DNA of 64,000 bases, from NCBI GenBank assembly GCA_937871505.1, contig CALMPF010000023.1, positions 471-64,470 of the forward strand, written 5' to 3'. Made by a program: the position numbers and the translations under genes. Under the pieces are notes generated by a model. It searched no databases. It worked only from the letters and a program-made list of their open reading frames with translations, and was not told where the DNA came from. Numbering within the stretch: position 1 is the first letter of the stretch; each line of letters begins with the position of its first letter. The stretch is from an uncultured Planctomycetia bacterium (GTDB taxonomy: Bacteria; Planctomycetota; Phycisphaerae; Phycisphaerales; SM1A02). This document shows, in pieces, positions 4,520 to 62,418 of this stretch.

Positions 4520-5775
4520 CCGTCACCAGTCGCTGCACGTGCTCGCGGTGTGCCGTCGAGCGCGACGGCAAGCCGGCCAAGGACGGCTCCGCCAAGCTGC
4601 CGCGCGGCTGGAAGCGGTGGTGCGACGCGCTCTGGTGCGACACCTGCTGGCGTCGCGGGTGGTCCATGAGGGCGGTGTCGATGCCGATTGCGTCGGCCGC
4701 ACGGGATGGCGAGCAGATCGAGCGCAGCGCGCTGCGCGATCTCATCCGGGCAGCCTGCCAGATGGCGTCGACCGCTGCGAACATCGTCATCCGCGAGTGT
4801 GTCGCGACGGACATCGTCAGGCTTCCGGGCATGGCCAAGCTGCCGCCGATGCCAGCGTTCCCGCCTGGCCCGACGGGCAAGGCATCGACGCACGTCTACC
4901 ACCGCGTCCGCGCCGCGCTGCCTGACCTCGACCCACAGAGCGTGACGAGCATCGTGCAGGCCGCGCAGCGGAAGTGGAGCGCGTCGCGGTTCGATGTCGT
5001 CTGGCGTCGCTCGGCGGCGCCGCCGTCCTACCGCGACGACATGCCGTGCCCGATCGCGGCTGCGGCGACGTCTGTCGCGATGGACGGAGATCGCGCCGTG
5101 GTGTCGATCAGGCTCGGGCGCAGCCGCGTCGCCTGCACCATGGTGCAGGGTGCCGAGTGGAGGCGTCAGCTCGCGACGCTGCGCCGGATCGCGTCCCGCG
5201 AGTGGCCCGGCGGAGAGGCATCGGTCTACCTGCGCGACGGCAGACCGATGATCAAGGTCTGTGCGTGGGTGCCAGTCTCGGCACCGCGAGAGACCGATGG
5301 CGTGCTCTCAGTGCGCACCTGCGGCGACCACATGCTCACCCTGACGGTCGGTCAGACGGTGCGCAGAGTCAACTGCGACCGCGATCGCCGGATGCTGGAG
5401 ACTCACGATCGTCGGCTCCAGCGCTGGAGCGACGACATGAAGCCGGAGGTCAGGCCACCGTCGATGGTCGCTGAGCACCTGCAGGAGGATCGCGAGATCG
5501 CGTGTCGCGCGCGGGCTCGCGTCGTCGACACGCTGACGCACACGCTGTCGTCGATCGTCGCGGGACTCGCTCGCCGCCGTCGCGTCGCGCGAGTGGTGTA
5601 CGACAACACCGACCGGACCTACATGTCTGGATCGTTCCCGTGGCACATGCTGGCTGAGCGGATCCGCCAGAAGGTCGCGGCGAACGGACAGGAGATGCTG
5701 ACCATCACGCCTGACGCGAGCACGAGGGTGGTGGCACCCCCTCAGGAGATGCTCGCGAGTGAGGCGGGACAATGA
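4513..5775 (+). CDS. Compact TnpB/Cas12-like protein (420 aa), apparently lacking the Zn-finger/RuvC-III segment; has an N-terminal CxxC...CxxC zinc ribbon
   Basis: The gene sits immediately upstream of the CRISPR array. By eye it is colinear with TnpB in five segments:
- MRAVSMPIAS..AANIVIREC (N-terminal strand plus helix).
- AAQRKWSASRFDVVWRRSAAPPSYRDDMPCPI (WED, PrFK-like).
- GVLSVRTCGDHMLTLTV (RuvC-I strand; Leu at the Asp position).
- RVARVVYDNTD (RuvC-II strand; Asp for Glu).
- SFPWHMLAERIRQKVAANGQEM.
The ORF ends about 20 aa after the last segment. The family call is an inference; that it is a real CDS is more secure. Confidence 0.5.
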   Translation: MLTVTSRCTCSRCAVERDGKPAKDGSAKLPRGWKRWCDALWCDTCWRRGWSMRAVSMPIASAARDGEQIERSALRDLIRAACQMASTAANIVIRECVATDIVRLPGMAKLPPMPAFPPGPTGKASTHVYHRVRAALPDLDPQSVTSIVQAAQRKWSASRFDVVWRRSAAPPSYRDDMPCPIAAAATSVAMDGDRAVVSIRLGRSRVACTMVQGAEWRRQLATLRRIASREWPGGEASVYLRDGRPMIKVCAWVPVSAPRETDGVLSVRTCGDHMLTLTVGQTVRRVNCDRDRRMLETHDRRLQRWSDDMKPEVRPPSMVAEHLQEDREIACRARARVVDTLTHTLSSIVAGLARRRRVARVVYDNTDRTYMSGSFPWHMLAERIRQKVAANGQEMLTITPDASTRVVAPPQEMLASEAGQ

Positions 5776-5885: not shown

Positions 5886-6403
5886 CCCGCGGTGCCTCGA
5901 TCGACGATCAGGGACTGTGGGTCCAGCAGCGGGTCACCAGCGCCGTCGCAGATCACCCCGCGGTGCCTCGATCGACGATCAGGGACTGTGGGGCGGGTAC
6001 CTACGGCACTGGCGACACCGCCGTCGACGCCCGCGGTGCCTCGATCGACGATCAGGGACTGTGGGGACCCGGCCAAGGCGCAGCTCAACACCTTCGTCGC
6101 CCCCGCGGTGCCTCGATCGACGATCAGGGACTGTGGGGGTGGCGACCGTCCCGAAGCTCGGCCAGGCGATGCGCCCCGCGGTGCCTCGATCGACGATCAG
6201 GGACTGTGGGGCTCGGGCCCCGACGCCCGCGGTGCCTCGATCAACGATCAGGACTGTGGGTTCGTGCCCTACGCCGAGATGTGCGCGACGCTCACCCCCG
6301 CGGTGCCTCGATCGACGATCAGGGACTGTGGGTGTGCAGGTCGCCGCGATGCTCGAAGCCGATGGCCCCCGCGGTGCCTCGATCGACGATCAGGGACTGT
6401 GGG
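5886..6403. CRISPR. CRISPR array, 8 repeats and 7 spacers, carried by the prophage
   Basis: The 36-bp repeat CCCGCGGTGCCTCGATCGACGATCAGGGACTGTGGG starts at 5886, 5957, 6030, 6102, 6175, 6226, 6297 and 6368. The copy at 6226 is 35 bp and degenerate. The spacers are unique, with lengths 35, 37, 36, 37, 15, 36 and 35 bp. Confidence 0.85.
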
Positions 6404-6458
6404 ACGAGCTTGCGAGCCTGTGCCATGGACGCCGTCATCGAGTCGACGGGAGGCTCCA

Positions 6459-6812
6459 GTGAGCACGCTGCGCCCGCGCAACCCAGTGCATCGCCTGCCG
6501 TCGTGGGCCGAGCTCCAATCGCTGCCGCCTGAGGCCTGGGACGGCCTCAGGCGCGTCCTGCTCGACCTGCGGAGCGAGGCCAACGAGCTCGCGGAGACCG
6601 CGTGGCGGCGGCGCAAGGGCCCGATGGCCGCCTACTGGCGGGCCGTCTCGACCTACGCCAGGCACCTGGCCGGCTGCTGCGTGCCCCCCCGCGGGTCCTC
6701 CCCGGGCCCTGATTCGCCCGCGACACCCAAGGGAACAGTCGCAAAACGAGACAGACTTTCTTTCGCGCGGCCAGTCCGATCCAACCCCCTTCCGGGACCA
6801 GAAACGCGATGA
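6459..6812 (+). CDS. Hypothetical protein (117 aa) downstream of the array
   Basis: GTG start follows GGGAGG, and the stop overlaps the ParB-methylase start (ATGA at 6809). The product begins STLRPRNPVHRLPSWAELQSLPPEAWDGLRRVLLDLRSEANELAETAW. Confidence 0.45.
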   Translation: MSTLRPRNPVHRLPSWAELQSLPPEAWDGLRRVLLDLRSEANELAETAWRRRKGPMAAYWRAVSTYARHLAGCCVPPRGSSPGPDSPATPKGTVAKRDRLSFARPVRSNPLPGPETR

Positions 6813-8167
6813 AGCTCGAACACAGAACTCTCGATTCCATCAGGCCCTACGAGCAGAACCCGCGGATCAACGACGCGGCGGTAGACGCTGTCGCCAGGTC
6901 GATCAGCGAGTTCGGCTTCCGCCAGCCGATCGTCGTCGACCCCGATGGGGTGATCATCGTCGGCCACGTCCGGTGGAAGGCCGCCCAGCGCCTCGGCCTC
7001 GAGCAGGTGCCGGTCCACGTCGCCAAGGACCTCTCGCCGGAGCGGGCGCGGGCCTACCGCATCGCCGACAACCAGACCGCCGACATCGCCGAGTGGGACG
7101 ACGAGGCCCTCACCGCGGAGCTGCTCGCCCTCAGAGACCTCGACGTCGATCTCGCCTCGCTGGGCTTCGACGAGGACGAGCTGGCGAGGCTCCTCGCCGG
7201 AGACCTCTCCCCCGGTGAGACCGACCCCGACGACATCCCCGCTCCGCCCGATGAGGCGACGACGCAGCCGGGAGACCTGTGGATCCTGGGCGACCACCGG
7301 CTCCTCTGCGGTGACAGCTCGAGCGCTGCCGACGTCGACCGGCTCCTCGCCGGCGATCCCATCCACCTGGTCAACACCGACCCGCCGTACAACGTGAAGG
7401 TCGAGCCGCGATCGAACAACGCGATCGCCGCCGGGCTCTCGTCGTTCAGCGCCGCGAAGCCGACCCATCACCAGTCGATGGACGTCGCGCGGCATCCCGA
7501 GAAGTCGAAGGCGACCCACCGCCAGCTCCGCGCGAAGGACCGTCCGCTCGCGAACGACTTCGTCACCGACGCCGCGTTCGACGATCTGCTCGACGCGTGG
7601 TTCGGCAACATCGCCCGAGTGCTCCTGCCCGGTCGCGGCTTCTACGTCTGGGGCGGCTACGCGAACCTCGGGAACTACCCGCCGTTCCTGCGGAAGCACG
7701 GGCTCTACTTCAGCCAGGGGATCGTGTGGGACAAGCAACACCCCGTCCTGACGCGCAAGGACTTCATGGGTGCCTTCGAGCTCGCGTTCTACGGCTGGCG
7801 CGAGGGCGCGGCCCATCTATTCCTCGGGCCGAACAACGCGACGGACCTCTGGCGAGTCAAGAAGGTGACCCCGCAGTCGATGGTCCACCTCACCGAGAAG
7901 CCCGTCGAGCTCGCGATCCGCGCGATGCAGTACTCGTCGCGGCCAGGCGAGAACGTGCTCGACCTCTTCGGCGGCAGCGGCTCGACGCTCATCGCTGCGG
8001 AGCAGACCGGGCGACGGGCGCGGCTGATGGAGCTCGACGCGCTCTACTGCGACGTGATCGTGCAGCGCTGGGAGCAGTTCACGGGCCGGAAGGCCAGCCG
8101 GATCTCCGCATCCGACCGCGACACAGCCCCGGCCGGTGCCGGGGCTGTGGAGGAAGCCGGGGCGTGA
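6809..8167 (+). CDS. ParB-like nuclease domain fused to a DNA methyltransferase (N6A/N4C type)
   Basis: The N-terminus (IRPYEQNPRINDAAVDAVARSISEFGFRQPIVV..GHVRWKAAQRLG) is a ParB/Srx fold. VNTDPPYN is the catalytic DPPY motif. LDLFGGSGSTLIAAEQTGR is the SAM-binding motif. Confidence 0.85.
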   Translation: MKLEHRTLDSIRPYEQNPRINDAAVDAVARSISEFGFRQPIVVDPDGVIIVGHVRWKAAQRLGLEQVPVHVAKDLSPERARAYRIADNQTADIAEWDDEALTAELLALRDLDVDLASLGFDEDELARLLAGDLSPGETDPDDIPAPPDEATTQPGDLWILGDHRLLCGDSSSAADVDRLLAGDPIHLVNTDPPYNVKVEPRSNNAIAAGLSSFSAAKPTHHQSMDVARHPEKSKATHRQLRAKDRPLANDFVTDAAFDDLLDAWFGNIARVLLPGRGFYVWGGYANLGNYPPFLRKHGLYFSQGIVWDKQHPVLTRKDFMGAFELAFYGWREGAAHLFLGPNNATDLWRVKKVTPQSMVHLTEKPVELAIRAMQYSSRPGENVLDLFGGSGSTLIAAEQTGRRARLMELDALYCDVIVQRWEQFTGRKASRISASDRDTAPAGAGAVEEAGA

Positions 8168-8186
8168 CCCCGGCGCGGTCATCCGA

Positions 8187-8492
8187 TCAGGCAGGCATCG
8201 CGTCGCTCGTGACCTCGGCGAGCGTCGTCGCAAGCATGTTGAACGGCCTGGTCAGCTCGATGATCGCGTGGTATTTGGCGATCGCCATCTCGAGCTCGTA
8301 CGCGGTCGCCTGGAGTACACCGCAGGGGTTCGGGGCCTCGCCCGCGGCGAGGCGTCGCTCCGCCTCGTCGAGCCGCCGACGGGCCTCGTCGATCGTGCTC
8401 TCGATCCGCTGTCGGTACTCCGCGGCCGTCAAGCTGAAGGACCGCTTCGCGTACGCGACATGCCAGGTCTGGGTCTCGGTGAGGATCTGCAT
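8187..8492 (-). CDS. Hypothetical small protein (101 aa)
   Basis: ATG at 8492 follows GGAGAC. The product begins MQILTETQTWHVAYAKRSF and is predicted helical. Leader copy A lies upstream. Confidence 0.5.
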   Translation of the reverse strand: MQILTETQTWHVAYAKRSFSLTAAEYRQRIESTIDEARRRLDEAERRLAAGEAPNPCGVLQATAYELEMAIAKYHAIIELTRPFNMLATTLAEVTSDAMPA

Positions 8493-8623
8493 CGTGGTCT
8501 CCGTGGTTCGAGGTGTCTCGCGTCCGTTCCCCGTCGTCGGGGATCCCCGTTCGCGTCGCCCACAACAGGGCATGGAATCGGCCCCGCAGCAAGCGGATCA
8601 GCCGAGAAAACATGGGTTTCTCG
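8493..8623 (-). promoter_or_regulatory. Conserved leader/promoter cassette, copy A
   Basis: About 130 nt nearly identical to 9142-9272. The core ACAACAGGGCATGGAATCGGCCCCGCAGCAAGCGGATC is shared with 10182-10275. The cassette ends at the SD and ATG of the downstream minus-strand gene. Confidence 0.55.
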
Positions 8624-8780
8624 CACATTCCAGATCGCGGCCTCGGACCGCCCGGCTGTCCCGGTCGTGCCCCCCGACGCCGTGGGCCACGACGTCCGCG
8701 TCTGTGGCGTCGGCCCGCCGAGATCCCCCCACCCCAGCCCTGGCGACCAGCGACGCGACACGGCCCAACGTGGGCGGACG

Positions 8781-8812
8781 AGAGCGCCCCGGCGTTCGCC
8801 GGGGCGTCGTCT
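8781..8812 (-). terminator. GC-rich hairpin downstream of gene 8836-9141
   Basis: GCCCCGGCG-TTC-GCCGGGGC lies just past the stop of the minus-strand gene. There is no U-tract, which may be common in high-GC genomes. Confidence 0.3.
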
Positions 8813-8835
8813 CGGGACCAGGTCGCCAGCGTGCG

Positions 8836-9141
8836 CTACTTCGTGGCGGCACCCACCGCCTCGAGGTAGTCGAGCAGGTCATCGATCCGGAGCCAGATGT
8901 CGCCGTCCGCGCAGTCGTGCTCCTCGGGCCCGTTCGGCGTCAGCTCGAAGAGTCGGTAGCCGCCGGGAGCTCCGGGGATCGACCCCCAGTTGCCTTCCTG
9001 GCGCCGGCCGCGTCCGGCGGGAACCGATGTGAGGTTCCAGAGGCGGCGGTCTGGCGTCCGCAGCTCGAGGCTGGTGATCTCGATTCCGCGCTCCTCGACC
9101 TGGCGGGCGGCGTCGGTGGTGCGGTGTGTCGTGGTGGTCAT
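8836..9141 (-). CDS. Hypothetical small protein (101 aa)
   Basis: ATG at 9141 follows GGAGACAACG. The product begins MTTTTHRTTDAARQVEERGIEITSLELR. Leader copy B lies upstream. Confidence 0.5.
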   Translation of the reverse strand: MTTTTHRTTDAARQVEERGIEITSLELRTPDRRLWNLTSVPAGRGRRQEGNWGSIPGAPGGYRLFELTPNGPEEHDCADGDIWLRIDDLLDYLEAVGAATK

Positions 9142-9272
9142 TCGCGTTGTCTCCGTGGTAGGTGGTCCGCGTCCGTTCCCCGTCGTCGGGGATCCCCGTT
9201 CGCGTCGCACACAACAGGGCATGGATTCGGCCCCACAGCAAGCGGATCAGCCGAGAAAACATGGGATTCTCG
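9142..9272 (-). promoter_or_regulatory. Conserved leader/promoter cassette, copy B
   Basis: Near-identical to 8493-8623, although the downstream coding sequences are unrelated. Confidence 0.55.
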
Positions 9273-9318
9273 GAGAGTGGGCGTCCAGTGGGCAACTCGC
9301 CAATCGGCCCAGCGGCGC

Positions 9319-9843
9319 TCATCCGGTGTGACCGGTCGACGCGAAGAGACCACGATCGACCCTGCGGAAGCGCGATGCCGGCCCCTTCGCCGCGATCTCC
9401 CTGGTGATCGCGGCGTAGAGCGTCGCGTGAGGTGTCTTCCCGCTCGTCCGCCATCCTTCGGCGATCGCGCGATCGGCGATCACCCTCGCGCTGAGAGGCT
9501 TGTCCGAGTGGGCGAGCACCTCGGCGGCGAGCGTGAGCCCGCTCCAGCGTCGGATCACGCGCGATCGGCGCGGCGCCGCGGTCGTCTCCGTCGTCGACAC
9601 CGCGCGCTCGCTGGCGGTCATTCCGTCGGCGCTGGTGGCGCGCTCGTCGCTCTTGGCTGCGTTCTCCTGATCGGCGGCAGCGATCGCCTTGATGTTGGCC
9701 TTGATGGCCCGCTGCGCATCTGCGAGCGCCCGCTTGGTCGTGGCGTCTCCATCGGCGCGAGCAGCGCTCGCCGGTGCCCGTCGGGCCTTCTTGGGGACGG
9801 ACTTCTTCGGGGTCGGCTTCTTGCTGGTGGTCTTCTGCGGCAT
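9319..9843 (-). CDS. HARE-HTH (winged helix) DNA-binding protein with a Lys-rich N-terminal tail
   Basis: The C-terminus (LTLAAEVLAHSDKPLSARVIADRAIAEGWRTSGKTPHATLYAAITREIAAKGPASRFRRVDRGLFAS) matches the HARE-HTH pattern (tP.atl.a.i..di....srF.rv.rG.f). The N-terminus MPQKTTSKKPTPKKSVPKKARR is histone-tail-like. Confidence 0.65.
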   Translation of the reverse strand: MPQKTTSKKPTPKKSVPKKARRAPASAARADGDATTKRALADAQRAIKANIKAIAAADQENAAKSDERATSADGMTASERAVSTTETTAAPRRSRVIRRWSGLTLAAEVLAHSDKPLSARVIADRAIAEGWRTSGKTPHATLYAAITREIAAKGPASRFRRVDRGLFASTGHTG

Positions 9844-9914
9844 CGTGGTATCTCCATGCCGACGCCGCCGGAGCCCGCGACGCGCGGGCTCCGGCGCTCG
9901 GCCAGGTGGGTTGG

Positions 9915-10181
9915 TCAGTGGCTCGCGGCATTCGCGTCGTCGAGGAAGCCCTCGACCTCGCTGCGGTCCATCCCCGCGAGGAAGGCGACCGCGTCGACCA
10001 GGTCGCAGCGGAGCTTCTGGATGTTGCCCGCGAAGCCCCAGTTCTTCTCGTCGGCCTTGGCGCGCTCGTCGTGCTTGGCGAGCTCCATGTCGAGGACGTC
10101 GAGGAGCCGGGCGATGTCGTTGCGGGCGGCGGCGTACGCGCTGGTCGCGGTGCGTCGGGTCTGGCTGGTGGCGGTCGTCAT
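9915..10181 (-). CDS. Hypothetical small protein (88 aa)
   Basis: ATG at 10181 follows GGAGCACGAC. The product begins MTTATSQTRRTATSAYAAARNDIARLLDVLDMEL. Leader copy C lies upstream. Confidence 0.5.
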   Translation of the reverse strand: MTTATSQTRRTATSAYAAARNDIARLLDVLDMELAKHDERAKADEKNWGFAGNIQKLRCDLVDAVAFLAGMDRSEVEGFLDDANAASH

Positions 10182-10275
10182 GTCGTGCTCCGTGGTAGGT
10201 GTTCCGCGTCGGACACAACAGGCCATGGAATCGGCGACGCAGCAAGGCGATCCCCCGAGAATCGCCGATGAATCT
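10182..10275 (-). promoter_or_regulatory. Conserved leader/promoter cassette, copy C (shorter variant)
   Basis: Shares CACAACAGGCCATGGAATCGGCGACGCAGCAAGGCGATC and the CCACGGAG SD context with copies A and B. It lacks the GGGGATCCCC-containing insert. Confidence 0.45.
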
Positions 10276-10327
10276 GCAGAGGGGGCATCCAGTGGACAAA
10301 GTTTGCCGCGAATGACCCCTCCGGAGA

Positions 10328-10669
10328 ATGCACGCGATCGAGACACGACGGACCAGGTCGCCCATGGGCGCGGCCGCTGTCTCATCGCCACCGATGCAGC
10401 CACCCGAACCACGCGAAACGTCGCCGCCCAGGCAGGCCCCGATCGACCCTCGGGCGCTCGCGATCGATCAGCTGGCCACGTTGCTGACGCGCGCGGGCGG
10501 TGTGCGCGTCAGCGAGGCGATGATCGAGGCGGACGTGGCCGATGGCGCGCCGACGAACGCCGACGGAACGCTGCACCTGGTGCACTACTGCGCGTGGCTC
10601 GCCGCGGAGGTCTCGAGGCAGCAGGGAGGTGGGCGAGCCCATCGACCCGCGCCGCCTGAGACCGGTTGA
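10328..10669 (+). CDS. Terminase small subunit-like HTH protein (start uncertain)
   Basis: The gene lies directly upstream of TerL. IDQLATLLTRAGGVRVSEAMIEADVADGAPTNADGTLHLVHYCAWL resembles TerS/Nu1-like HTH regions. Alternative in-frame ATGs are at 10364 and 10394. Confidence 0.4.
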   Translation: MHAIETRRTRSPMGAAAVSSPPMQPPEPRETSPPRQAPIDPRALAIDQLATLLTRAGGVRVSEAMIEADVADGAPTNADGTLHLVHYCAWLAAEVSRQQGGGRAHRPAPPETG

Positions 10670-12962
10670 CTGCCTCCAGCTGCTGAACTCGACCCCGTTG
10701 GGCGAGGTGGTCAGCGAGAGGCAGTTGCTGCGCTGGCGGATGTCCGCCGGCACGGCGATCGCCGCGCCCGCGGATCCGACCAAGGTAGACGTCCTCCGCC
10801 TCACCGGATGGCTCGCTCGCCGCCGCGATCGATCGATCGAGGCAGCCAAGCGGAAGGGCCGCGCGCCTGCGGCCGCGCCGCCGCCTCACGCGAACGCCTA
10901 CGACGCGCATCGCGAGCGCATGCGCGCCCGCTTCGAGGCGCTCTCGAAGTCCGGCCGCGACATCGGCGAGCTGCCGCCTGTCCGCGACCCCGACCGGCGC
11001 GCTCGATGCGAGCGGGATCTGCGGCTGTTCTGCGAGACGTACATGCCGATGACGTTCACGCTCGCTTGGTCTCCAGACCACCTGGTCGTCATCCGCAAGA
11101 TCGAGCAGGCGGTGTTGGAGGGCGGGCTCTTCGCGATGGCCATGCCCCGCGGCTCGGGGAAGACCTCACTCTGCGAGGTCGCCTGCCTGTGGGCGATCGT
11201 GTACGGCCACCGCCAATTCGTGGCGCTCATCGGAGCCGAGAAGGACTCCGCGACCCAGTCACTCGACTCCGTGAAGACCGAGATCGCGAGCAACGATCTC
11301 CTCGCCGAGGACTTTCCGGAGGTCTGCTTCCCGGTTCAGTGCCTCGAGGGGATCCACCAGCGGGCGCCGGGACAGCTGTACCAGGGCCGTCAGACGCACA
11401 TCCACTGGACCGCCGACGAGCTCGTGCTGCCGACGATCGCAGGCGCGAAGTCCTCCGGCGCGATCATGCGCGTCGCCGGCATCACCGGCCGGATCCGCGG
11501 GATGAAGTACAAGAGGCAGGATGGCGTCAGCGTCCGCCCCGAGCTCGTCCTCGTCGACGACCCGCAGACCGACGAGTCCGCCCGCAGCCCATCGCAGTGC
11601 GCCACCAGAGAGCGCCTTGTCGCGGGCGCGATCCTCGGTCTCGCAGGACCCCGAAAGAAGATCGCCGGGCTGATGACGCTCACCGTCGTTGCCCGAGACG
11701 ACCTGGCCGATCGCCTGCTCGACTCGCAGCGCCACCCCCAGTGGCAGGGTGAGCGGATGCGGATGGTCTACGAGTTCCCGCACGACGAGAAGCTCTGGGC
11801 GCGCTACTCGGAGATCCGCGCCGAGGGACTGCGCGCCGAGAAGGGCCTCGAGCCGGCCACAGCGTTCTACAAGAAGCACCGAAAGAAGATGGACGCCGGG
11901 GCCAAGGTCGCCTGGGAAGCGCGGTTCAACCCGGACGAGGCGAGCGCCATCCAGCACGCGATGAACCTGCGGCTTCAGGACGAGCACGCGTTCTGGGCGG
12001 AGTACCAGAACGATCCGAAGCCGCTGCACGAGGAGGCAGCGCCCGACGTCGGCATCGAGGAGATCCTCGCGCGCACCAACGGCTACCGCCGGGGCGTCGT
12101 CCCTCGCTCGAGCTCGATCGTCACAGCCTTCATCGATGTGCAGGGGAAGCTGCTCTACTGGATGATCGTCGCGTGGGAGCAGGACTTCACGGGGCACCTC
12201 GTCGACTACGGCACCTTCCCCGAGCAGCGCGTGCCGTACTTCACGCTCCGCGACGCGAAGCGGACGCTCGCCTCGATCGCTCCCCGGGCCGGGCTCGAGG
12301 GGATGATCTTCGCGGGGCTCGAGGGCGCAGCCGCAGCGATCCTCGGCCGCGAGCTGCCTCGCGATGACGGAGGTGTGGCCCGCGTGTCACGCTGCCTCAT
12401 CGACGCGAACTGGGGTGCGTCGACCGAGGTCGTCTACCAGTTCTGCCGCCAGTCGCAGTACTCGGGCCAGCTCACTCCGAGCCACGGTCGATGGATCGGC
12501 GCCACCAGCCGGCAGATGGCGGAGTACGCCGCGAAGAAGGGCGATCGGGTCGGCTCGCACTGGCGCATGCCGGCGCCGACCGGCCGACGCGCGGTGCGGC
12601 ACGTGCTCTTCGACGCGAACTGGTGGAAGAGCTTCCTCGCCCAGCGCCTGTCGATCGGCATGGGCGATCGGGGAGGGCTCAGCATCTTCGGTGATTCAGC
12701 CGCCGCAGAATCCCACCGCATGCTCGCCGAGCATTGGACCTCCGAGCGCCGCACTCCCGTCGAGGCGCGCGGCAAGACGGTCGACGAGTGGAAGCTGCGG
12801 GCGCCCGGGATCGACAACCACTGGCTCGACACCGCTGTCGGCTGCGCTGTCGCGGCGTCGATGGAGGGGGCGGCGACGGCAGGCATGGCACCGCTGGCCC
12901 GGCGCCAGAAGCGCATCCGTCTCTCCGAGATCATCGCGGCCAGAAGGGCGATCACGCAATGA
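10629..12962 (+). CDS. terL: Terminase large subunit (GpA family)
   Basis: Walker A is AMPRGSGKTS and Walker B-like is ELVLVDDPQTDES. The nuclease-region motifs CLIDANWG and DNHWLDTAVGCAVAA are typical of lambda GpA-type terminases. The GTG start at 10629 is tentative. Confidence 0.85.
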   Translation: MGEPIDPRRLRPVDCLQLLNSTPLGEVVSERQLLRWRMSAGTAIAAPADPTKVDVLRLTGWLARRRDRSIEAAKRKGRAPAAAPPPHANAYDAHRERMRARFEALSKSGRDIGELPPVRDPDRRARCERDLRLFCETYMPMTFTLAWSPDHLVVIRKIEQAVLEGGLFAMAMPRGSGKTSLCEVACLWAIVYGHRQFVALIGAEKDSATQSLDSVKTEIASNDLLAEDFPEVCFPVQCLEGIHQRAPGQLYQGRQTHIHWTADELVLPTIAGAKSSGAIMRVAGITGRIRGMKYKRQDGVSVRPELVLVDDPQTDESARSPSQCATRERLVAGAILGLAGPRKKIAGLMTLTVVARDDLADRLLDSQRHPQWQGERMRMVYEFPHDEKLWARYSEIRAEGLRAEKGLEPATAFYKKHRKKMDAGAKVAWEARFNPDEASAIQHAMNLRLQDEHAFWAEYQNDPKPLHEEAAPDVGIEEILARTNGYRRGVVPRSSSIVTAFIDVQGKLLYWMIVAWEQDFTGHLVDYGTFPEQRVPYFTLRDAKRTLASIAPRAGLEGMIFAGLEGAAAAILGRELPRDDGGVARVSRCLIDANWGASTEVVYQFCRQSQYSGQLTPSHGRWIGATSRQMAEYAAKKGDRVGSHWRMPAPTGRRAVRHVLFDANWWKSFLAQRLSIGMGDRGGLSIFGDSAAAESHRMLAEHWTSERRTPVEARGKTVDEWKLRAPGIDNHWLDTAVGCAVAASMEGAATAGMAPLARRQKRIRLSEIIAARRAITQ

Positions 12963-33167: not shown

Positions 33168-34217
33168 TCATCGCGCTGCCAGCGCATGGTCGGGCACCCG
33201 AAACTCGATTCCGATGGGATTCCCGTTCCGGAGCGGGCGCACACGCAGCTCAGTCGCAGCGTCGACCGGGAGTTCACACGCGAACCAGTCCGCGACGGTC
33301 TGCCCCGGATAGATCGACTCGGCGCTGATGCCGCCGTCGGGCACCCCGCCGGTGAGGGTGTAGACCGTGTACCGGTTCCCGTGTTCGTCGACCACGTCAG
33401 CGCGGCCGAACAGCCCTCGATCGCGCCACGAGACGAACGGAGCACGCTTGTTGGTGCTCGGATTCTCGATCTCCATCTTGATCCATACCGCGTCGGACGT
33501 GGTCGTCATCGCCCGGCCGAACTGATCGAAGTTGCGTGTGCCCACGTACGCATCCACCAAGCGAATCCGCACATCGTCGACGTCGGCCCACGCCTGCCAA
33601 TCAACGACGGTCGGGCCGCTGGATGCCGCAGGTCCCTGGACGCTGGCCTCATGTGCCCGGGACCTCGCCTGCTCCAACGCTGAGGGAACACCGGACACTG
33701 CGGCGGCGAGTCCGACGCTCGTGACCAAGCTGATCGACAGCGAGACGACACAGAGGGCACCTCCGCCGAGGGCGAAGCCGATCCCGCGCCCGCGGCGGAA
33801 GACCGCCGCAAGGACACCGATGATCGCGAGCAGGAGACCGAGGCCGGCGAAGATCGCTCCGATGATGGACACGAACGGGATCCAGCAGATGAGCAGTGCG
33901 ACCAGGCCCAGGATCACCGACGCGATCCCCATGCTGCTGCTGCCGCCGGATCCTGCATGCACGACGACTTGGTTCACGTGGCTCGGCTGACCTGGCGGGT
34001 ACGCCTGCCCATGCCCACTTGGGCCTTGGCGGGCAGCGATCCCCTCTCTCGGCACCTCGACGATTCCGGTGGGCGCGGTCGGCTCCCGGATGTCGCTCAC
34101 CATGATGCCCATGTCGGCGGCTTGCTCTTGCGCCTCGAGCAGGGTCTCCGCCTCGATCGTGACCTTCACCGGCTTGCCGGTGTCCCTGCTCGCTCCCATC
34201 ACCGTGAATGAACGCAT
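33168..34217 (-). CDS. Membrane protein with an extracytoplasmic beta-rich C-terminal domain (DUF4352-like?); moron candidate
   Basis: ATG at 34217 follows GGGGAGAT. A small N-terminal domain is followed by 3-4 transmembrane spans (IASVILGLVALLICWIPFVSIIGAIFAGLGLLLAIIGVLAAVF...). The C-terminal domain ends ...IEFRVPDHALAAR. Confidence 0.55.
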   Translation of the reverse strand: MRSFTVMGASRDTGKPVKVTIEAETLLEAQEQAADMGIMVSDIREPTAPTGIVEVPREGIAARQGPSGHGQAYPPGQPSHVNQVVVHAGSGGSSSMGIASVILGLVALLICWIPFVSIIGAIFAGLGLLLAIIGVLAAVFRRGRGIGFALGGGALCVVSLSISLVTSVGLAAAVSGVPSALEQARSRAHEASVQGPAASSGPTVVDWQAWADVDDVRIRLVDAYVGTRNFDQFGRAMTTTSDAVWIKMEIENPSTNKRAPFVSWRDRGLFGRADVVDEHGNRYTVYTLTGGVPDGGISAESIYPGQTVADWFACELPVDAATELRVRPLRNGNPIGIEFRVPDHALAAR

Positions 34218-34344
34218 TCTCTGATCTCCCCGGCGCAGGCTCCCCGCGCCGATGTCCCCTGATCTGCGTGAGGAACCGCTCCTCAGGCCATGCTGTCGCA
34301 TCGATCGATGATCCCGCAACCACGACACGGGCCGGGACAGGAGG

Positions 34345-34722
34345 TCACCCGGGCCGCCGCGAGCGCGAAGACTGGCCGCCAGATTGCGGGTTGACCCGTC
34401 GCACAGGCTTCCGTCCACGGGTCTGTTCGGTCCGACTGAATCGCCCCTTGGCGACGATGCTGTGCTCTTGCGCGAAGGCCTTGAGCACACCCACCAACTC
34501 AGTTCGTACCACATGGCTGATCTGGTCCTCGTGAAGCTGCTTGGCGTTCATCGCCCGCAGCACCTCTGGACCACACGCCTCACCGATGGCGACCAAGGCA
34601 GCGATGACGCCGGTCATTGAGCCGATGCCGGATTGCATGGCCAGCGAGTGGAGCTTGGCGTGATCTAGATCACGGACACGGATGGGAGGGGTGGCTGGCA
34701 CGTCAGGCACAGGGTAAACCAT
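34345..34722 (-). CDS. Ribbon-helix-helix-like regulator candidate (start at ATG 34722 or GTG 34749)
   Basis: PPIRVRDLDHAKLHSLAMQSGIGSMTGVIAALVAIGE has a strand-helix-helix pattern. The gene is divergent from 34797-35012 across the least GC-rich stretch I noticed in the window. Confidence 0.4.
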   Translation of the reverse strand: MVYPVPDVPATPPIRVRDLDHAKLHSLAMQSGIGSMTGVIAALVAIGEACGPEVLRAMNAKQLHEDQISHVVRTELVGVLKAFAQEHSIVAKGRFSRTEQTRGRKPVRRVNPQSGGQSSRSRRPG

Positions 34723-34762
34723 GTAGACAACTTGGGGACAAAAGTTCACATCAACTACCTTG

Positions 34763-34791
34763 TTGACAATGTAAACGGTGTGAGCTAGATT
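34763..34791 (+). promoter_or_regulatory. Near-consensus sigma70 promoter (TTGACA-N17-TAGATT) giving a leaderless or near-leaderless mRNA
   Basis: TTGACA is at 34763-34768 and TAGATT at 34786-34791. The ATG of the downstream gene is at 34797, only 5 nt after the -10 element. Confidence 0.55.
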
Positions 34792-34796
34792 CCGGC

Positions 34797-35012
34797 ATGG
34801 CCACTCGACGATCCGTGCTCATCCGTGTCTCGCCAGAGACGTACCAGCGGGCAAAACGCCTGCGCTGGCAGAGACAGAGCACGATCGGAGGGGTGGTCGG
34901 TGAGGCGTTGGAGCTGCTGGATCGTGAGCGTGGAGCCCAAGAGGCGCCGTCGGCCAGCCCAGCGCCCGCCGAAATCTCACGTTCCCGCCGCAAGCCCAAG
35001 TCCGTCGCATGA
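34797..35012 (+). CDS. Ribbon-helix-helix (CopG/Arc-like) regulator
   Basis: RSVLIRVSPETYQRAKRLRWQRQSTIGGVVGEALELLDRE fits a beta-strand plus two helices of RHH repressors. Confidence 0.55.
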   Translation: MATRRSVLIRVSPETYQRAKRLRWQRQSTIGGVVGEALELLDRERGAQEAPSASPAPAEISRSRRKPKSVA

Positions 35013-35093
35013 GACCCTCACCCACACCTGCGGTCTCACTCCCGCGGGTGTGGGAGGCGCCGGGCGGCGATCGACGCCCGGCTCCCTCCTCCT

Positions 35094-35121
35094 CCGCCGG
35101 CGACGGCGACGTCGCCGGCGG
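35094..35121 (+). terminator. Hairpin downstream of the RHH gene
   Basis: CCGCCGGCGAC-ggcgac-GTCGCCGGCGG has an 11-bp stem. It is followed by the tandem CTGATCTCCTCC x2 (35125-35148). There is no T-tract. Confidence 0.3.
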
Positions 35122-35369
35122 CCCCTGATCTCCTCCCTGATCTCCTCCCAGAGCCCGCGTGAGGCGGGCGTCTCTCTCCAGCGTGGACTCGACACGCGGG
35201 CCCGGGCCGAGCCGATCGGCCCCAGGTGCCGACGACCTGACCATCAGTCGGAGCGCCCCTCGTCGCTGCCTCGGCAGCGGCAGGGGCTTCCAGCCGCGGC
35301 GCCGCGGCAGACCTACCTCCTCCGCAGCCCCCTCCGTCGGCGCCGACGGAGGGGGCAACCCCGAACACC

Positions 35370-36113
35370 ATGAGCCACGCATGCCACACGCCGACCACGA
35401 CTCCGACCCAGACAGACAGTCTCCGGAGGCACGCGACTGCCATCGGCGACGTGGTCGGCCTCGTGCGAGGCACGATCGGGGAGCTTCCCGGGCTGCCGCG
35501 CGCCGTGCGCGAGCAAGCAGACGGACTGGAGTACCCGCCAGTCCACGATGCGTGGCTGCACCTCACGCACGATGCGATGAGGCAGCTCCTCGCCGCGCTC
35601 GGTCAGGCGGCGCTCGAGGTCGCGTGTGCGGCCGACCGGTGGGCCGCCAAGCAGGTCATGGGCCGCACCTCGGGCCGCAGACCCGAGGTGTACCTCGACG
35701 CTGCCATCTGGGCTGCCTGCCGTGCCGCCGTCGGGGCCGTCCGCGCCGCGGTGGACGGCCCCGACGGCGCCGCAGACGAGCACATCGCAGCCTGCGGCGC
35801 CCACGCGCGGCGAGCCCATGAGCTCGCCGCAGAGGCGGTCATCGTCACGCGACACGCAGGTCTCGTCGACTGGCTGAGGCGGCTGGGCATCACCGGGCGA
35901 GTGATCGCGCACGCGACGCTCGACGATGTCCGTGGCCGCAGGGTGATCGGCCCCCTCCCACTCCATTTGGCCGCACACGCGTCGCTCGTCGGCGCGATCG
36001 ACATGCCGCTCATCACTGCGGAGTCGAGGGGCCGAGACCTCTCGCCCGAAGAAATGGACAGAGCCGGCGCCGTGCTGCACTGGTACACGGTGCGGCCGGT
36101 CGCCGGCGACTGA
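35370..36113 (+). CDS. Protein with a C-terminal Csx16 (Cas_VVA1548)-like domain
   Basis: The C-terminal ~90 aa read VIVTRHAGLVDWLRRLGITGRVIAHATLDDVRGRRVIGPLPLHLAAHASLVGAIDMPLITAESRGRDLSPEEMDRAGAVLHWYTVR. This matches my recollection of the Csx16 consensus (TRHpGA..Wl....H......GD.ViG.LP..LAa........L.l....RG.EL..ee....ga.l..y.V). Confidence 0.45.
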   Translation: MSHACHTPTTTPTQTDSLRRHATAIGDVVGLVRGTIGELPGLPRAVREQADGLEYPPVHDAWLHLTHDAMRQLLAALGQAALEVACAADRWAAKQVMGRTSGRRPEVYLDAAIWAACRAAVGAVRAAVDGPDGAADEHIAACGAHARRAHELAAEAVIVTRHAGLVDWLRRLGITGRVIAHATLDDVRGRRVIGPLPLHLAAHASLVGAIDMPLITAESRGRDLSPEEMDRAGAVLHWYTVRPVAGD

Positions 36114-36173
36114 TCGACCCCCACCCACCCCCCGCGCCGGCCGGGGGGGCAGTCAGACTCAGCCGGCACCCCT

Positions 36174-36245
36174 GGCGGGGTAGAGCAGGAGCAGCTCGCC
36201 GGTCTCATACGCCGGAGGTCGCTGGTGCGAATCCAGCCCCCGCTA
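36174..36245 (+). tRNA. Prophage-encoded tRNA-Met(CAT)-like gene (non-canonical T-loop)
   Basis: The sequence is GGCGGGG TA GAGC AGGAGCA GCTC G CCGGT CTCATAC GCCGG AGGTC GCTGG TGCGAAT CCAGC CCCCGCT A. It folds into a full cloverleaf with anticodon CAT. The T-loop reads TGCGAAT (G at position 55). No CCA is encoded. Confidence 0.55.
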
Positions 36246-36293
36246 CTGGCTCGGCTGCGGCGCCCGAGGTCGGCGCCGTGGCCGGGGCGCTCG

Positions 36294-36321
36294 CCCCCTG
36301 CGGTCGCGCGACCGCAGGGGG
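36294..36321 (+). terminator. Perfect 28-bp palindrome downstream of the tRNA
   Basis: CCCCCTGCGGTCGC|GCGACCGCAGGGGG, with no T-tract. Confidence 0.35.
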
Positions 36322-36400
36322 ACTTCAGCGGGCCGCGCGGTGCGGCCCGCGACATGCTCGGAGCGACGTCGGGACGCTGCCCGACGGCATAGGAGATCCC

Positions 36401-36877
36401 ATGCGGATCGAGACAGCCCTGTCGGTCTCCGTCCTCGACGGAGACCGCGTCGTCGACCGGGCGACGCGGAGGATCGCAGTCGATGTCGCCGCCGGGGACG
36501 CAGCGGAAGCGGCGTCGCTCCTCGGTCGGCTGAGCGTCGCGGAGACGCCCAGCATGCCCGGCGGCAGCGCCGATCTCGCGATGGCGCTGCAGTCGATCGC
36601 GACGGCAGCGATCGCCGCGCCCACTCCGATCCTCGGCGAGCAGCCGGTCGAGCAGCCGGTCGAGCAGCGTGCGCCGATCGCGCACGGGTGCTCGGTGTCG
36701 ATGCTCGCGCTGCTCGCGGTGGTGGTGGTCGGGATCGTGGTCGTCGCCATCCGCGAGGGCAGCGGCGCGATCCTCGGATCTGCGTCCATCGCCGGGCTCC
36801 TCCTCATCGGAGTCGTCGGCGCGTGCTCAGTCTGGCTCGCCGAGCTCGGGGACGGGATGGGGGTGGTCGAGCGATGA
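36401..36877 (+). CDS. Membrane protein (158 aa)
   Basis: ATG follows AGGAGATCCC. The C-terminal transmembrane pair is MLALLAVVVVGIVVVAI and IAGLLLIGVVGACSVWLA. Confidence 0.5.
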   Translation: MRIETALSVSVLDGDRVVDRATRRIAVDVAAGDAAEAASLLGRLSVAETPSMPGGSADLAMALQSIATAAIAAPTPILGEQPVEQPVEQRAPIAHGCSVSMLALLAVVVVGIVVVAIREGSGAILGSASIAGLLLIGVVGACSVWLAELGDGMGVVER

Positions 36878-37559: not shown

Positions 37560-38011
37560 GCCGCTCGTGCTACTCCGACGACCTCGATTCCGCCGCGCTC
37601 GCGATGTGGCGCGGGCGCGTCATGAGCGCGATCCGCGGCCGACGCGGGCAGCGCCTGCTGCGCGACTTGCTGTCGGCGCTCGAGGCGATGCCTGACCGCG
37701 AGCTGATCAGGGGCGATCTGGTCGTCGATGGCGCCTGCTGCGCGCTCGGCGCGGTCGCGCTGCACCGCGGACTGCGTGCGCAGGTCGACGAGATCCAGCG
37801 GGAGCTCCCGCGCGACGAGTGGGACGATCACGACGACGGCGAGCGCAACGAGATGATCGCGGCTGCGCTCGACGTGGCGACCTGCATGGTGCAGGAGATC
37901 GCCGACGTCAACGACGACTGGGGACCGCATGACCAGACGCCAGCGCAGCGGCACGCGAGGATGCTCGCGTGGGTGCGAGGGCACCTCGCGCAGGGCAAGG
38001 AGGAACGATGA
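37556..38011 (+). CDS. Hypothetical protein (151 aa)
   Basis: ATGA overlaps at both ends. Confidence 0.45.
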   Translation: MSRSCYSDDLDSAALAMWRGRVMSAIRGRRGQRLLRDLLSALEAMPDRELIRGDLVVDGACCALGAVALHRGLRAQVDEIQRELPRDEWDDHDDGERNEMIAAALDVATCMVQEIADVNDDWGPHDQTPAQRHARMLAWVRGHLAQGKEER

Positions 38012-39612
38012 CCATCACCACGACTCACGGCGTGTCGAACATCCCGATCGACTCGATCGACGTGCACGTCTCGTCGCGGCCGGTGGACGCCGAGCACGTG
38101 CGCCGGCTCGCCGAGTCGATCGCGGAGCACGGACTGCAGTCGCCGATCACGGTCTACCTGTCGGGAGCGCGGTACGTCCTCGGGGACGGCAGGCACCGGC
38201 TCGAGGCATGCCGGAAGCTCGGCATGGAGGAGTTGTTGGCGATCTGCCGCGCGGAGACCGCCGATGACGACATCCGCGTCGGGCAGCTCGTCGCGAACCT
38301 CCATCGCCGCGACATGCTCCCGATCGAGGAGGCCGAGGGCGTGGCCGAGCTCCTCGCGGCCTACCGGGGCCGCGGTGATGCAGCGCCGGTCGAGCGGGTC
38401 GCGGCGGCGCTCGGGCGACCCGAGACCTGGGTGCGCGAGCGGATGTACCTCGATCGACTCGCGCCGCGCGTGCGCGAGCTCGCCCGCATCGCGGAGATTC
38501 CCGCCGGCCACCTCCGCGAACTGGCACGCGTGGGCGACGTGCAGCGTCAGCAGGAGCTCGCGGCGCAGTGTGCCGGATCGTCCTGGTGGCAGATCGTCGA
38601 GCGAGACGATGAGGATGAGGTCTGCGGGTGGGACGCGGACGAGATCGCCGAGATCCGCGATCGCATCGCGACGCGGACCACGAGCCGGCCGACGATCGCA
38701 GAGATTCGCGAGACGGTCGACACCTACCTCCGGCCCCTGCGCGGCGTGCCGTGGGAGCTCTCGCTCCCGGTGATCGCCACCGACGGCCGCGAACTGCGAC
38801 CATGCGACGGATGCCCGCACAACAGCGGCAGCGACCGCGTCCTCTTCGCCGTCGCGTCCGACGCGAAGCACGAAGTCTGCGCAGACGGCGCCTGCTACGC
38901 CGCGAAGCGCGAGGCGGCGGACCGCGTGAGGACGAAGATCGAGGGTGATCTCGCGCGGCGCAAGACGCCGGCGACGCTCGACCACGTGCGAGCGAAGGCG
39001 CCGGACTGGATGAGGGCGACGACCGTCTCAGGCATCGCCAGGAAGCACGCGGCAAAGCACGCGGCCAACGGGAAGGACACGGCGTCGACGACTGCTCCTG
39101 CGGCTGCCAGACCTTCAGCGACCGGGCCGAGCGACGAGGCTCTCCGCGCATTCGCCGATCAGGTGCTCGACTGGTCCGAGTCGGTGAGCGCCCTGCTCAC
39201 TGATCTGCTCACGCCCCTCGAGCTCGTGCTGCTGAACCATCTGAGTGCCACAGGCGACAATCGAATCGTCTTCCGCACGTACGGGATCGACCGCGGGGTC
39301 CACATCCAGCCGACCGGACTCGAGGATGTCGATCCGTCGACCATCCGCGCCGATGACTACGCGAGCGCCACCGCGCTCGCCGAGCTTGCGCGGCAGCGAA
39401 AGATCGACTGTGTGTACGAGGAGATCGACTGGCTGTGCCTGCCGCGCACCTGGGTGGACGCCCTCGGCGCTCGCTACGGCGTCGTGATCCCTCCCGACCC
39501 GGTGTGGGATCCGCCGGCGCCGGCCGAGCCGCCGAAGCAGAAGGGGAAGAAGCCTCGCGGCCAGATGGCCGCGGCGAACGACCGCACGCATGACGAGGAG
39601 GACGACCGGTGA
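38008..39612 (+). CDS. ParB/Srx-domain protein (534 aa)
   Basis: IPIDSIDVHVSSRPVDAEHVRRLAESIAEHGLQSPITVYLSGARYVLGDGRHRLEACRKLG is a ParB N-terminal (DGxHR) domain. It has a long C-terminal extension. Confidence 0.75.
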   Translation: MTITTTHGVSNIPIDSIDVHVSSRPVDAEHVRRLAESIAEHGLQSPITVYLSGARYVLGDGRHRLEACRKLGMEELLAICRAETADDDIRVGQLVANLHRRDMLPIEEAEGVAELLAAYRGRGDAAPVERVAAALGRPETWVRERMYLDRLAPRVRELARIAEIPAGHLRELARVGDVQRQQELAAQCAGSSWWQIVERDDEDEVCGWDADEIAEIRDRIATRTTSRPTIAEIRETVDTYLRPLRGVPWELSLPVIATDGRELRPCDGCPHNSGSDRVLFAVASDAKHEVCADGACYAAKREAADRVRTKIEGDLARRKTPATLDHVRAKAPDWMRATTVSGIARKHAAKHAANGKDTASTTAPAAARPSATGPSDEALRAFADQVLDWSESVSALLTDLLTPLELVLLNHLSATGDNRIVFRTYGIDRGVHIQPTGLEDVDPSTIRADDYASATALAELARQRKIDCVYEEIDWLCLPRTWVDALGARYGVVIPPDPVWDPPAPAEPPKQKGKKPRGQMAAANDRTHDEEDDR

Positions 39613-39945: not shown

Positions 39946-40256
39946 ATGATCGACCAGCCTCCACCAGCCCCCGAAGCCGGGCCCGACTCGCCTCAGGCGA
40001 CGGCGCCAAGGCCACCGATGCTCGGCGCCGAGCAGTTCGCCCGGCGCCTCGGCGTCTCGCGCTCCACTGTCTACCGGCTGCGCAACCGGGGCGCGCTGCC
40101 CGACCCTCACATCGCATCCGGCCGGGTCATCCGCTGGAGCTCGGTCATCGTCGAGCGCTGGATCGATGCTGGCTGCCCGATCCGAGACGAGTGGGAGAAG
40201 ATGCCCGGCGCTGCGATGCCGGCGGCGCCTCGCGCGAAGAAGGGCGGTCGTCGACG

Positions 40257-40260
<4 letters not shown>
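39946..40260 (+). CDS. xis: Excisionase / AlpA-family HTH protein
   Basis: LGAEQFARRLGVSRSTVYRLRNRGALPDPHIASGRVIRWSSVIVERWI matches the AlpA/HTH_17 pattern. The gene lies directly upstream of the integrase, with a GTGA overlap. Confidence 0.75.
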
Positions 40261-41756
<1,496 letters not shown>

Positions 41757-41869: not shown

Positions 41870-46078
<4,209 letters not shown>

Positions 46079-61584: not shown

Positions 61585-62418
61585 TCAGGAGTCGCGCGCG
61601 CGTCGCCCGAGAGCGGTCAGCACCGCCTCGACGACCGTCCGTGCCTGCTCCTTCTCTTCCAGGCCACCCAGCACGATGGGCTGGCGGTCGGCGCGGCCGT
61701 AGGGGAGTTGATGCGGCTGCCAGTGCGATGCGTCCATGACCACGGGCAGGATCGATCGGCCCTCGACCCCCCGATTGCCCCGCCGTTCGATCTCCCGCTC
61801 GCCTTCTCGACAGAGAGAGATCGCCCGGGCCACTTCCTCGCCGGTGTACCACCCCGAGTCCCAACTCGCGGAGACCAGGACCAGGAAGAGCCGCGTGCGG
61901 GCCATCGCTTCCTGGGTTCGACGGGGCCAGTCCGCGCCGGGCGGCAGGGAGGCCCGGTCGAGAAAGGCATCGACGCGATGCATGATCAGCGCTTCCCAGA
62001 GCCGTCGGGCGATGGCCCGATCGGCTCCGGCATGGATCACGAAGAGGTCCCAGTCCTTCTCCTCCGGTCCCACCTTGGGGATCGCGTCGGCTGCTGCATC
62101 GAGCACCTCGCCGGGGGTGACTGCCGAGAGCGGGCGCGTTCCGGCAGGCCCCAGTCCGACCGAGACGCGCTCCGCACCCGGCTCGGCCCGCAACGCCTTG
62201 AGCCAGCGCGAGACCCGTTCGAGCAGGCCGAGACGCTCGGCGAGATGCCAGGTGGCGAGGATTGCCGGGGGGATGCTCAGCAGGACCGTTGCCACCGCCG
62301 CAGCATCGCGTGTACCGGCGGTGGAAAGCCCTCTTTCCTCGCACTCGACGGTGAGCGCGGCGGAAGTCGCAGCGGCGAACGGCTTGGCTCCGACGTCAAC
62401 AGGAATCACCAGGTTCAT
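61585..62418 (-). CDS. TIR-domain protein with an ~130-aa N-terminal adaptor-like region
   Basis: The C-terminal half reads DWDLFVIHAGADRAIARRLWEALIMHRVDAFLDRASLPPGADWPRRTQEAMARTRLFLVLVSASWDSGWYTGEEV. This fits the TIR pattern (D.F.SH...D......L...L......F.D...l..G......i......S....v.l.S......S.W...E). ATG at 62418 follows GGAGGT, 23 nt after the TPR gene stop. Confidence 0.65.
   Translation of the reverse strand: MNLVIPVDVGAKPFAAATSAALTVECEERGLSTAGTRDAAAVATVLLSIPPAILATWHLAERLGLLERVSRWLKALRAEPGAERVSVGLGPAGTRPLSAVTPGEVLDAAADAIPKVGPEEKDWDLFVIHAGADRAIARRLWEALIMHRVDAFLDRASLPPGADWPRRTQEAMARTRLFLVLVSASWDSGWYTGEEVARAISLCREGEREIERRGNRGVEGRSILPVVMDASHWQPHQLPYGRADRQPIVLGGLEEKEQARTVVEAVLTALGRRARDS

Follow-up and report, generated by a model that had tools for sequence, protein, structure and literature searches.

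A divergent Csx16 domain in a Planctomycetota prophage: a candidate viral ring nuclease

Ring nucleases set the outcome of type III defence by clustered regularly interspaced short palindromic repeats (CRISPR), and those encoded by viruses, of which AcrIII-1 is the model, work as anti-CRISPRs. The 64,000-nt stretch of DNA analysed here, hereafter the window, comes from contig CALMPF010000023.1 of an uncultured Planctomycetia bacterium (Phycisphaerales) and contains an integrated temperate phage, in which the plus strand at 35370-36113 encodes a 247-residue protein ending in a Csx16 domain (PF09652; residues 158-241, positions 35841-36092). The phage protein is probably a ring nuclease that would degrade cyclic tetra-adenylate (cA4) and thereby disable CARF-dependent type III effectors. 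It is a divergent member of its family, carries an N-terminal extension whose first ~107 residues appear unique to it, and belongs to a branch of viral and mobile-element copies that stands apart from the copies linked to type III loci.

The Csx16 domain and its N-terminal extension

The window is 70% G+C and has long open reading frames (ORFs) in every frame, so an ORF by itself is little evidence of a gene. The one at 35370-36113, present exactly where the earlier note had placed it, has G+C fractions of 0.77/0.55/0.84 at codon positions 1/2/3, the coding signature of a 70% G+C genome, kept from ~35400 to the stop at 36113, and its product has matches in Pfam, PADLOC and NCBIfam. The start codon is uncertain: ATG at 35370 gives 247 residues and the public gene call for the same protein (P0001) begins at a GTG at 35451 to give 220, with no Shine-Dalgarno-like motif at the usual spacing before either candidate.

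The domain matches Pfam PF09652 (Cas_VVA1548/Csx16) with an expect value (E) of 3.7e-16 and 59.5 bits, clearly above the gathering cutoff of 25 bits, and covers profile positions 2-90 of 91, nearly the whole profile. Four PADLOC Csx16 models also match the protein, with E from 5e-15 to 3e-9, and PHROGs holds no matching family. These profiles bear out the claim of the earlier note that the C-terminal ~90 residues are Csx16-like, and the motifs that it named are all found: TRHAG...W (160-168), GPLPLHLAA (194-202) and RGRDLSPEEMD (220-230) fall on invariant or near-invariant columns in alignments of 10 and 84 family members. Conserved residues in the domain are R161, H162, H181, G194, P197, H199, R220 and G221. 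The protein keeps V159, R161, H162, A163, G164, W168, H181, G194, L196 and P197, each invariant in 20 type III-linked copies (see below), as well as R220, which is 95% conserved in those copies. The polar residues proposed to bind and cleave cA4 (R161, H162, H181 and R220) are among the residues present, together with a conservative exchange of E223 for Asp.

AlphaFold2, run with the 84-sequence alignment, modelled residues 155-240 of the full-length protein with a predicted local distance difference test (pLDDT) of 96-98, and the domain alone with a mean pLDDT of 94.8 and a predicted template modelling score of 0.84. The model has five β-strands (residues 156-159, 176-179, 191-193, 206-211 and 235-239) alternating with helices, predicted to share the architecture of the published Csx16 models, a five-stranded sheet with flanking helices (PMC12409355). 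A PDB sequence search with the full protein returned ankyrin DARPins, matching 'LPLHLAA', and DNA polymerase III chi, both set aside as noise; no solved Csx16 structure surfaced in the PDB sequence and Foldseek searches.

Residues 1-150 (35370-35819, plus strand) form the N-terminal extension, for which AlphaFold2 predicts four long helices at moderate confidence (pLDDT 55-76), in agreement with the ~150-residue helical region described before. Searched alone in 5.8 billion proteins, this region matched only the protein itself; it contains no Pfam domain, and its weak matches to TFIIB and chi were dismissed as noise. BLASTP against P0002, a protein of an uncultured phage, aligned residues 108-241, so residues 108-153 are common to a subset of phage Csx16 proteins. 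Because the region matches only itself and the likeness of the P0002 type begins at residue 108, the first ~107 residues appear unique to this element. The helical region may be an accessory module, and roles in oligomerisation or tethering would be guesses.

Prophage location and relatives of the domain

An exact 47-bp direct repeat at 295-341 (attL) and 41679-41725 (attR) bounds a prophage of ~41.4 kb, and the Csx16-like gene lies well within it, among phage genes, as had been claimed. Host genes lie to the left of attL, and attR lies inside a tRNA-Lys (CTT) gene (41684-41756, minus strand) into which the integrase ORF runs at its 3' end. The gene content includes a ParB_N-methyltransferase, terminase gpA, a lambda-type portal, capsid and a ParB-like protein, with an excisionase-like gene (HTH_17; 40018-40260, plus strand) preceding a tyrosine integrase (40257-41750, plus strand; PF00589, E = 3e-11; phrog_66, E = 1.7e-10) at the right end. 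On its strand, the Csx16-like gene comes first in a run that continues with a tRNA-Met, four small genes without assigned function, the ParB-like gene, excisionase and integrase. The phage-borne tRNA-Met (CAT; 36174-36246, plus strand; Rfam 58.4 bits, also called by ARAGORN) begins 60 nt 3' of the Csx16-like gene.

Csx16 degrades cA4 specifically in EDTA buffer, a specificity that persists when ten times as much enzyme is used (Hoikkala et al. 2025, PMC12409355), so the proposal that the family are ring nucleases is now established biochemically, with cA4 as the substrate. That activity had been predicted from conserved His, Arg and Asp/Glu residues and from genomic neighbourhood (Makarova et al. 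2020, in the summary given by PMC8284326). The survey in PMC12409355 located Csx16 in 68 type III loci and in 2 of 28,114 phage genomes, compared with AcrIII-1 in 36 phage genomes, which lessens the novelty implied by the earlier note: viral ring nucleases, Csx16 activity and a Csx16 gene in a phage genome are already known. The sole homologue in a collection of 50,697 cultured-phage records is that of Methanobacterium virus Drs3, in two records (MH674343.1 and NC_062738.1; locus L085), and the two phage genomes of the survey may be these two records of a single virus. Drs3 ORF3, annotated 'putative CRISPR-associated protein, Cas_VVA1548', is likewise a virus-encoded Csx16 homologue, but it belongs to an archaeal virus, stands alone without an N-terminal extension and is 38.6% identical to the domain studied here.

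Uncultured phages give a broader picture. A profile search of the 5.8-billion-protein database, clustered at 90% identity, returned 395 relatives of the phage protein, and for the whole Csx16 family 2,567 representatives matched at 50% identity. The domain occurs alone (91-96 residues), in tandem, and fused to diverse N- or C-terminal extensions; fusion examples are a Lar_restr_allev zinc-ribbon (P0108), a tandem Csx16 (P0011) and unrelated C-terminal modules (among P0093/P0097 and P0068). The variety of viral fusions suggests a modular anti-defence toolkit. The nearest relatives, at 50-66% domain identity, are P0002, P0003, P0019 and P0047 (170-175 residues, uncultured phage) and WP_013615786.1 of a plasmid. 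All five have a phage or plasmid context without cas genes and lack the first ~107 residues of the protein, whereas P0002 and P0003 align with it from about residue 108, including the two-helix segment 108-153.

All six close homologues for which contigs were retrieved sit among phage genes (terminases, portals, tail genes, HNH or GIY-YIG nucleases). On three related phage contigs (L004, at 6140-7219; L005; L006) the Csx16 homologue lies directly 3' of a PF25703 (AcrF31) gene, and L004 has a Lar restriction-alleviation gene upstream; the arrangement looks like an anti-defence cluster. The plasmid relative (pDEIPR02 of Deinococcus proteolyticus; L084, NC_015162.1, 19115-19399, annotated 'Csx16') is 50% identical to the phage protein over the aligned domain. 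Its neighbours are small hypothetical genes, two genes for single-stranded DNA-binding proteins, a RES NAD+ phosphorylase and a lytic transglycosylase; no cas gene lies within 9 kb of it, and the region resembles a plasmid anti-defence or leading region. On one contig of a metagenome-assembled genome (MAG), a stand-alone homologue is followed ~360 nt 3' by a complete TnpB gene (OrfB_IS605 + Cas12f1-like_TNB; L010, 8409-9545). On another contig (L069), a candidate second array near a viral copy, at 8340-8740, proved to be ordinary 74-bp tandem repeats in 3-4 copies. Four palindromic iterons at 21-bp spacing follow these repeats, ~1.3 kb upstream of the homologue; repeats and iterons together look like a replication origin.

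Scanning two strict motif patterns yielded 46 viral contigs from IMG/VR and, among GTDB species-representative genomes, 23 loci. Twenty genomic copies are 30-45% identical to the phage protein, and for 10 of the 20 a CRISPR array lies no more than 10 kb away, its repeats ending in ATTAAGAC or ATTGAAAC. Neighbouring ORFs in 12 type III-linked loci matched RAMPs (10 ORFs), Cas1 (9), the Cas10 palm (7), Cmr2_N (3), Csm1_B (3) and Cas6 (3), and one Planctomycetota genome (L022) has Cas10, a RAMP protein and a canonical Csx16 together. Around the viral copies, 149 flanking ORFs matched 31 Pfam families; the 25 most frequent include no type III cas family, and Cro/CI-type helix-turn-helix proteins are the commonest match. 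A neighbour-joining tree separates the 20 type III-linked copies from the phage protein, all viral copies (the 46 from IMG/VR) and three short MAG contigs, with a bootstrap of 85 in 100. This split is an indication of a sizeable phage and plasmid branch of Csx16 in uncultured viruses, separate from the cellular one and not described in the literature searched. The occurrence of Csx16 in a Planctomycetota prophage is also new, as is a divergent member of the family with an orphan N-terminal module.

A proposed role in countering cA4 signalling, and its rivals

In the reading we favour, the Csx16 domain, probably as a homodimer, would bind the cA4 that a host type III system produces through its Cas10 and cut it to linear products with no need of metal ions. 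Loss of cA4 would deprive CARF-family effectors of their activator, and the phage would replicate or the lysogen survive. The reading presumes that the protein cleaves cA4, that it thereby counters type III immunity in its host, and that this host has a cA4-signalling system. Several comparative features add support for an anti-CRISPR role: the place of the protein in the viral branch, the accessory contexts of its phage relatives, the AcrF31 neighbour and the kept polar residues.

The protein shares with type III Csx16 the domain family, the R-H, GxLP and RG motifs and the predicted five-stranded fold, and by analogy metal-independent cA4 cleavage would be expected of it too. It differs in lying outside a CRISPR locus, in its 30-45% identity and position across the split in the tree, and in its 150-residue extension, a typical Csx16 having ~90-115 residues. 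AcrIII-1/Crn2 (DUF1874) offers a parallel as a virus-encoded destroyer of cA4, the role proposed here, with a small α/β domain and conserved His residues, but it is a different sequence family: Pfam gave no DUF1874 match at E up to 10, and DUF1874/AcrIII-1 structures are absent from the 50 best Foldseek matches, all non-significant, of either model. Crn4b is likewise a cellular ring-nuclease family also present on phages and plasmids, where orthologues sometimes have N-terminal extensions whose function is not known (PMC12830947); Crn4 differs in a fold unrelated to that of Csx16 and in a broad specificity for cyclic tri-, tetra- and hexa-adenylate (cA3, cA4 and cA6).

Expression would most likely be early, after infection or induction, which fits a gene on the strand of the excisionase and integrase that is also the first with a clear coding signature 3' of the only promoter-like site. 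This putative sigma-70 promoter (34763-34791, plus strand; TTGACA, 17 nt, TAGATT; 10 of 12 positions) is the sole such match in 34200-36500, where 0.1 is expected by chance, and faces the Csx16-like gene, with the excisionase and integrase farther downstream. Site and gene are separated by a small ORF whose coding signature is weak and by 357 nt of predicted untranslated leader (35013-35369, plus strand). Folding predictions give the leader a series of G+C-rich, nearly perfect hairpins, with stems of 13, 8, 10 and 13 bp. Its minimum free energy is -217.8 kcal/mol, compared with -173.6 ± 6.1 kcal/mol for shuffled sequences (z = -7.25), and none of 100 shuffles is as stable. Codon-position G+C is flat across the ~360 nt upstream of the gene. 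The only GGAGG motif would be sequestered in the last hairpin (35327-35356), which stops 13 nt short of the ATG. The leader contains no U-tract terminator; it may serve as an attenuator, control translation or form a stack of terminators. A lysogeny switch, with the ORFs at 34797-35012 (plus strand) and 34345-34749 (minus strand) encoding ribbon-helix-helix proteins, was proposed by eye and stays a guess, having no support from PHROGs or PDB for either ORF, or from Pfam for the minus-strand ORF.

Several observations weigh against the favoured reading. The profile check of Csx16 identity was divided: PF09652 is clearly above its cutoff, but NCBIfam TIGR02620, a hypothetical equivalog domain, matches at E = 2.3e-7 with 30.9 bits, below its cutoff of 46.35. 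Since the protein falls short of TIGR02620 and scores 59.5 bits on the PF09652 model, where a canonical Planctomycetota Csx16 scores 106.8, we regard it as a divergent member of the family. At three positions the protein departs from residues kept in 90-100% of type III-linked copies (A165L, D190R and E223D), and it is from conservation that the active site appears to be retained. Foldseek searches of PDB and BFVD with the full-length and domain-only models gave nothing significant, the best PDB match having E = 0.18; CARF domains of Cad1, a type III effector, recur among the weak matches at E ~0.5. The structured leader could insulate the gene from the upstream promoter. Finally, there are no cas genes in the ~84 kb examined (the window plus 10 kb to its left and right) of DAOLCN010000010.1, a 121.6-kb contig of assembly GCA_035327805.1 that contains the window, in keeping with the claim that no type III genes lie nearby.

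The same chemistry might serve the lysogen instead. An unlikely alternative is that the Csx16 fusion holds host type III signalling low and spares prophage transcripts, or CRISPR RNAs from a CRISPR-like array in the same prophage, from cA4-dependent toxicity; the element is indeed an integrated temperate phage with integrase and excisionase, the array has eight repeats, and the role ascribed to cellular ring nucleases is to reset type III signalling. Set against this, the array repeat has no link to a CRISPR type, being absent from IMG/VR and JGI metagenome contigs, the array may be a set of protein-binding sites, and the gene shares its strand and side with the excisionase and integrase module instead of occupying a classic moron position. 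It is quite unlikely that the protein binds cA4 without cleaving it, as a sponge or as a sensor that signals the state of infection to the helical module at the N-terminus. The relative Csx15 was nearly inactive as a ring nuclease in first assays, where a sponge role is discussed (PMC12409355), many unrelated N- or C-terminal fusions across phages have a sensor-effector look, and the three deviating positions would suit a binder. Yet every His and Arg conserved in the active Csx16 family is kept, the N-terminal region has no recognisable effector fold, and many viral copies are stand-alone proteins of 91-96 residues, the size of cellular Csx16, which argues for a domain able to act unaided.

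Retargeting to another nucleotide signal, such as the messengers of the cyclic-oligonucleotide-based anti-phage signalling system (CBASS), of Pycsar or of TIR proteins, would direct the protein at non-CRISPR defence and is very unlikely. A TIR-domain protein beside a CHAT/AAA_16/TPR protein in the host flank and the separation of the viral branch from type III-linked copies lean towards it; the conserved residues are the same in both branches, there is no evidence of any Csx16 acting on another ligand, and the tested Csx16 kept to cA4 at tenfold enzyme (PMC12409355). The earlier suggestion of other cyclic-nucleotide signalling thus found no specific support. Least probable of all is a decaying or neutral passenger without current function: although 107 N-terminal residues are unique to the element, the start codon is uncertain and a Shine-Dalgarno-like motif at typical distance is missing, the coding signature extends across the whole ORF, the family-invariant residues are all intact and the domain is modelled with very high confidence.

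For uncultured bacterial phages, these counts point to a far larger picture than the cultured-phage survey gave. If active as the favoured ring-nuclease reading proposes, viral Csx16 could rank among the main viral counter-measures to cA4 signalling, and phage Csx16 genes might be used to mark new anti-defence islands as well as hosts, the little-studied Planctomycetota among them, for which type III immunity is important.

The CRISPR-like array and the flanks of the prophage

Near the left end of the prophage, a non-coding region at 5886-6403 holds eight copies of a 36-nt repeat, CCCGCGGTGCCTCGATCGACGATCAGGGACTGTGGG, at start-to-start distances of 71-73 nt. CRISPR arrays are recognised by conserved repeats of 23-47 nt with unique spacers of similar length, and this region has both: its spacers are unique and 32-34 nt long, with a 12-nt stub spacer and one degenerate internal repeat as irregularities. 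Similarity between spacers (0.412) equals that between random prophage segments (0.408 ± 0.017), and a comparison of the spacers with the window and the fetched loci gave no match. The repeat is palindromic over almost its full length, and its RNA folds at -21.8 kcal/mol on the plus strand and -11.7 kcal/mol on the minus strand. Genes flanking the array include no Cas family, the repeat bears no similarity to the type III repeats beside cellular Csx16, and there is no Rfam CRISPR-DR match for the array. Its 27-nt core has no match in the IMG/VR and JGI metagenome contig collections; a 20-nt core gave three single matches there, attributed to chance. Copies of the prophage with other spacers were sought, and only near-identical assemblies are on record. 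The array may be a phage-borne orphan CRISPR array; the other reading is a series of palindromic sites for protein binding, for instance by the neighbouring ParB-domain proteins. ParB-domain proteins are encoded at 6809-8167 and 38008-39612.

Directly upstream on the same strand lies a gene (4513-5775, plus strand) for a 420-residue protein with a Cys-rich N-terminus, which has no Pfam match and no homologues in IMG/VR, INPHARED or PLSDB. A relation to Cas12f/TnpB is not supported: phmmer aligned it with Cas12f (9nzq) at a non-significant E = 0.29 in the TnpB 'PxFK' region, and comparison with a validated TnpB alignment by hhalign yielded a probability of only 0.58%. Array and Csx16 fusion might form a two-part strategy, though this is highly improbable. 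Array RNA would be loaded into a host effector complex or the 420-residue protein and turned against rival phages, and the Csx16 fusion would clear cA4, giving the lysogen sequence-specific interference while sparing it a toxic collateral response, with the N-terminal module tethering or regulating it. Such a virus would be both exploiting and rewiring type III CRISPR signalling.

Beyond the prophage, the host flanks carry genes for an extracytoplasmic function sigma factor and resistance-nodulation-division efflux on the left, and secA on the right. SecA (41870-46078, minus strand) is unusually long at 1402 residues, with insertions that split its DEAD and wing/scaffold domains. Further right, a TIR_2-domain protein (61585-62295, minus strand) adjoins a 1226-residue CHAT + AAA_16 + TPR protein, whose gene runs from 62442 to beyond 64000 on the minus strand (the pair is at 6174-10711 of locus L096); together the two genes look like a defence system unrelated to CRISPR.

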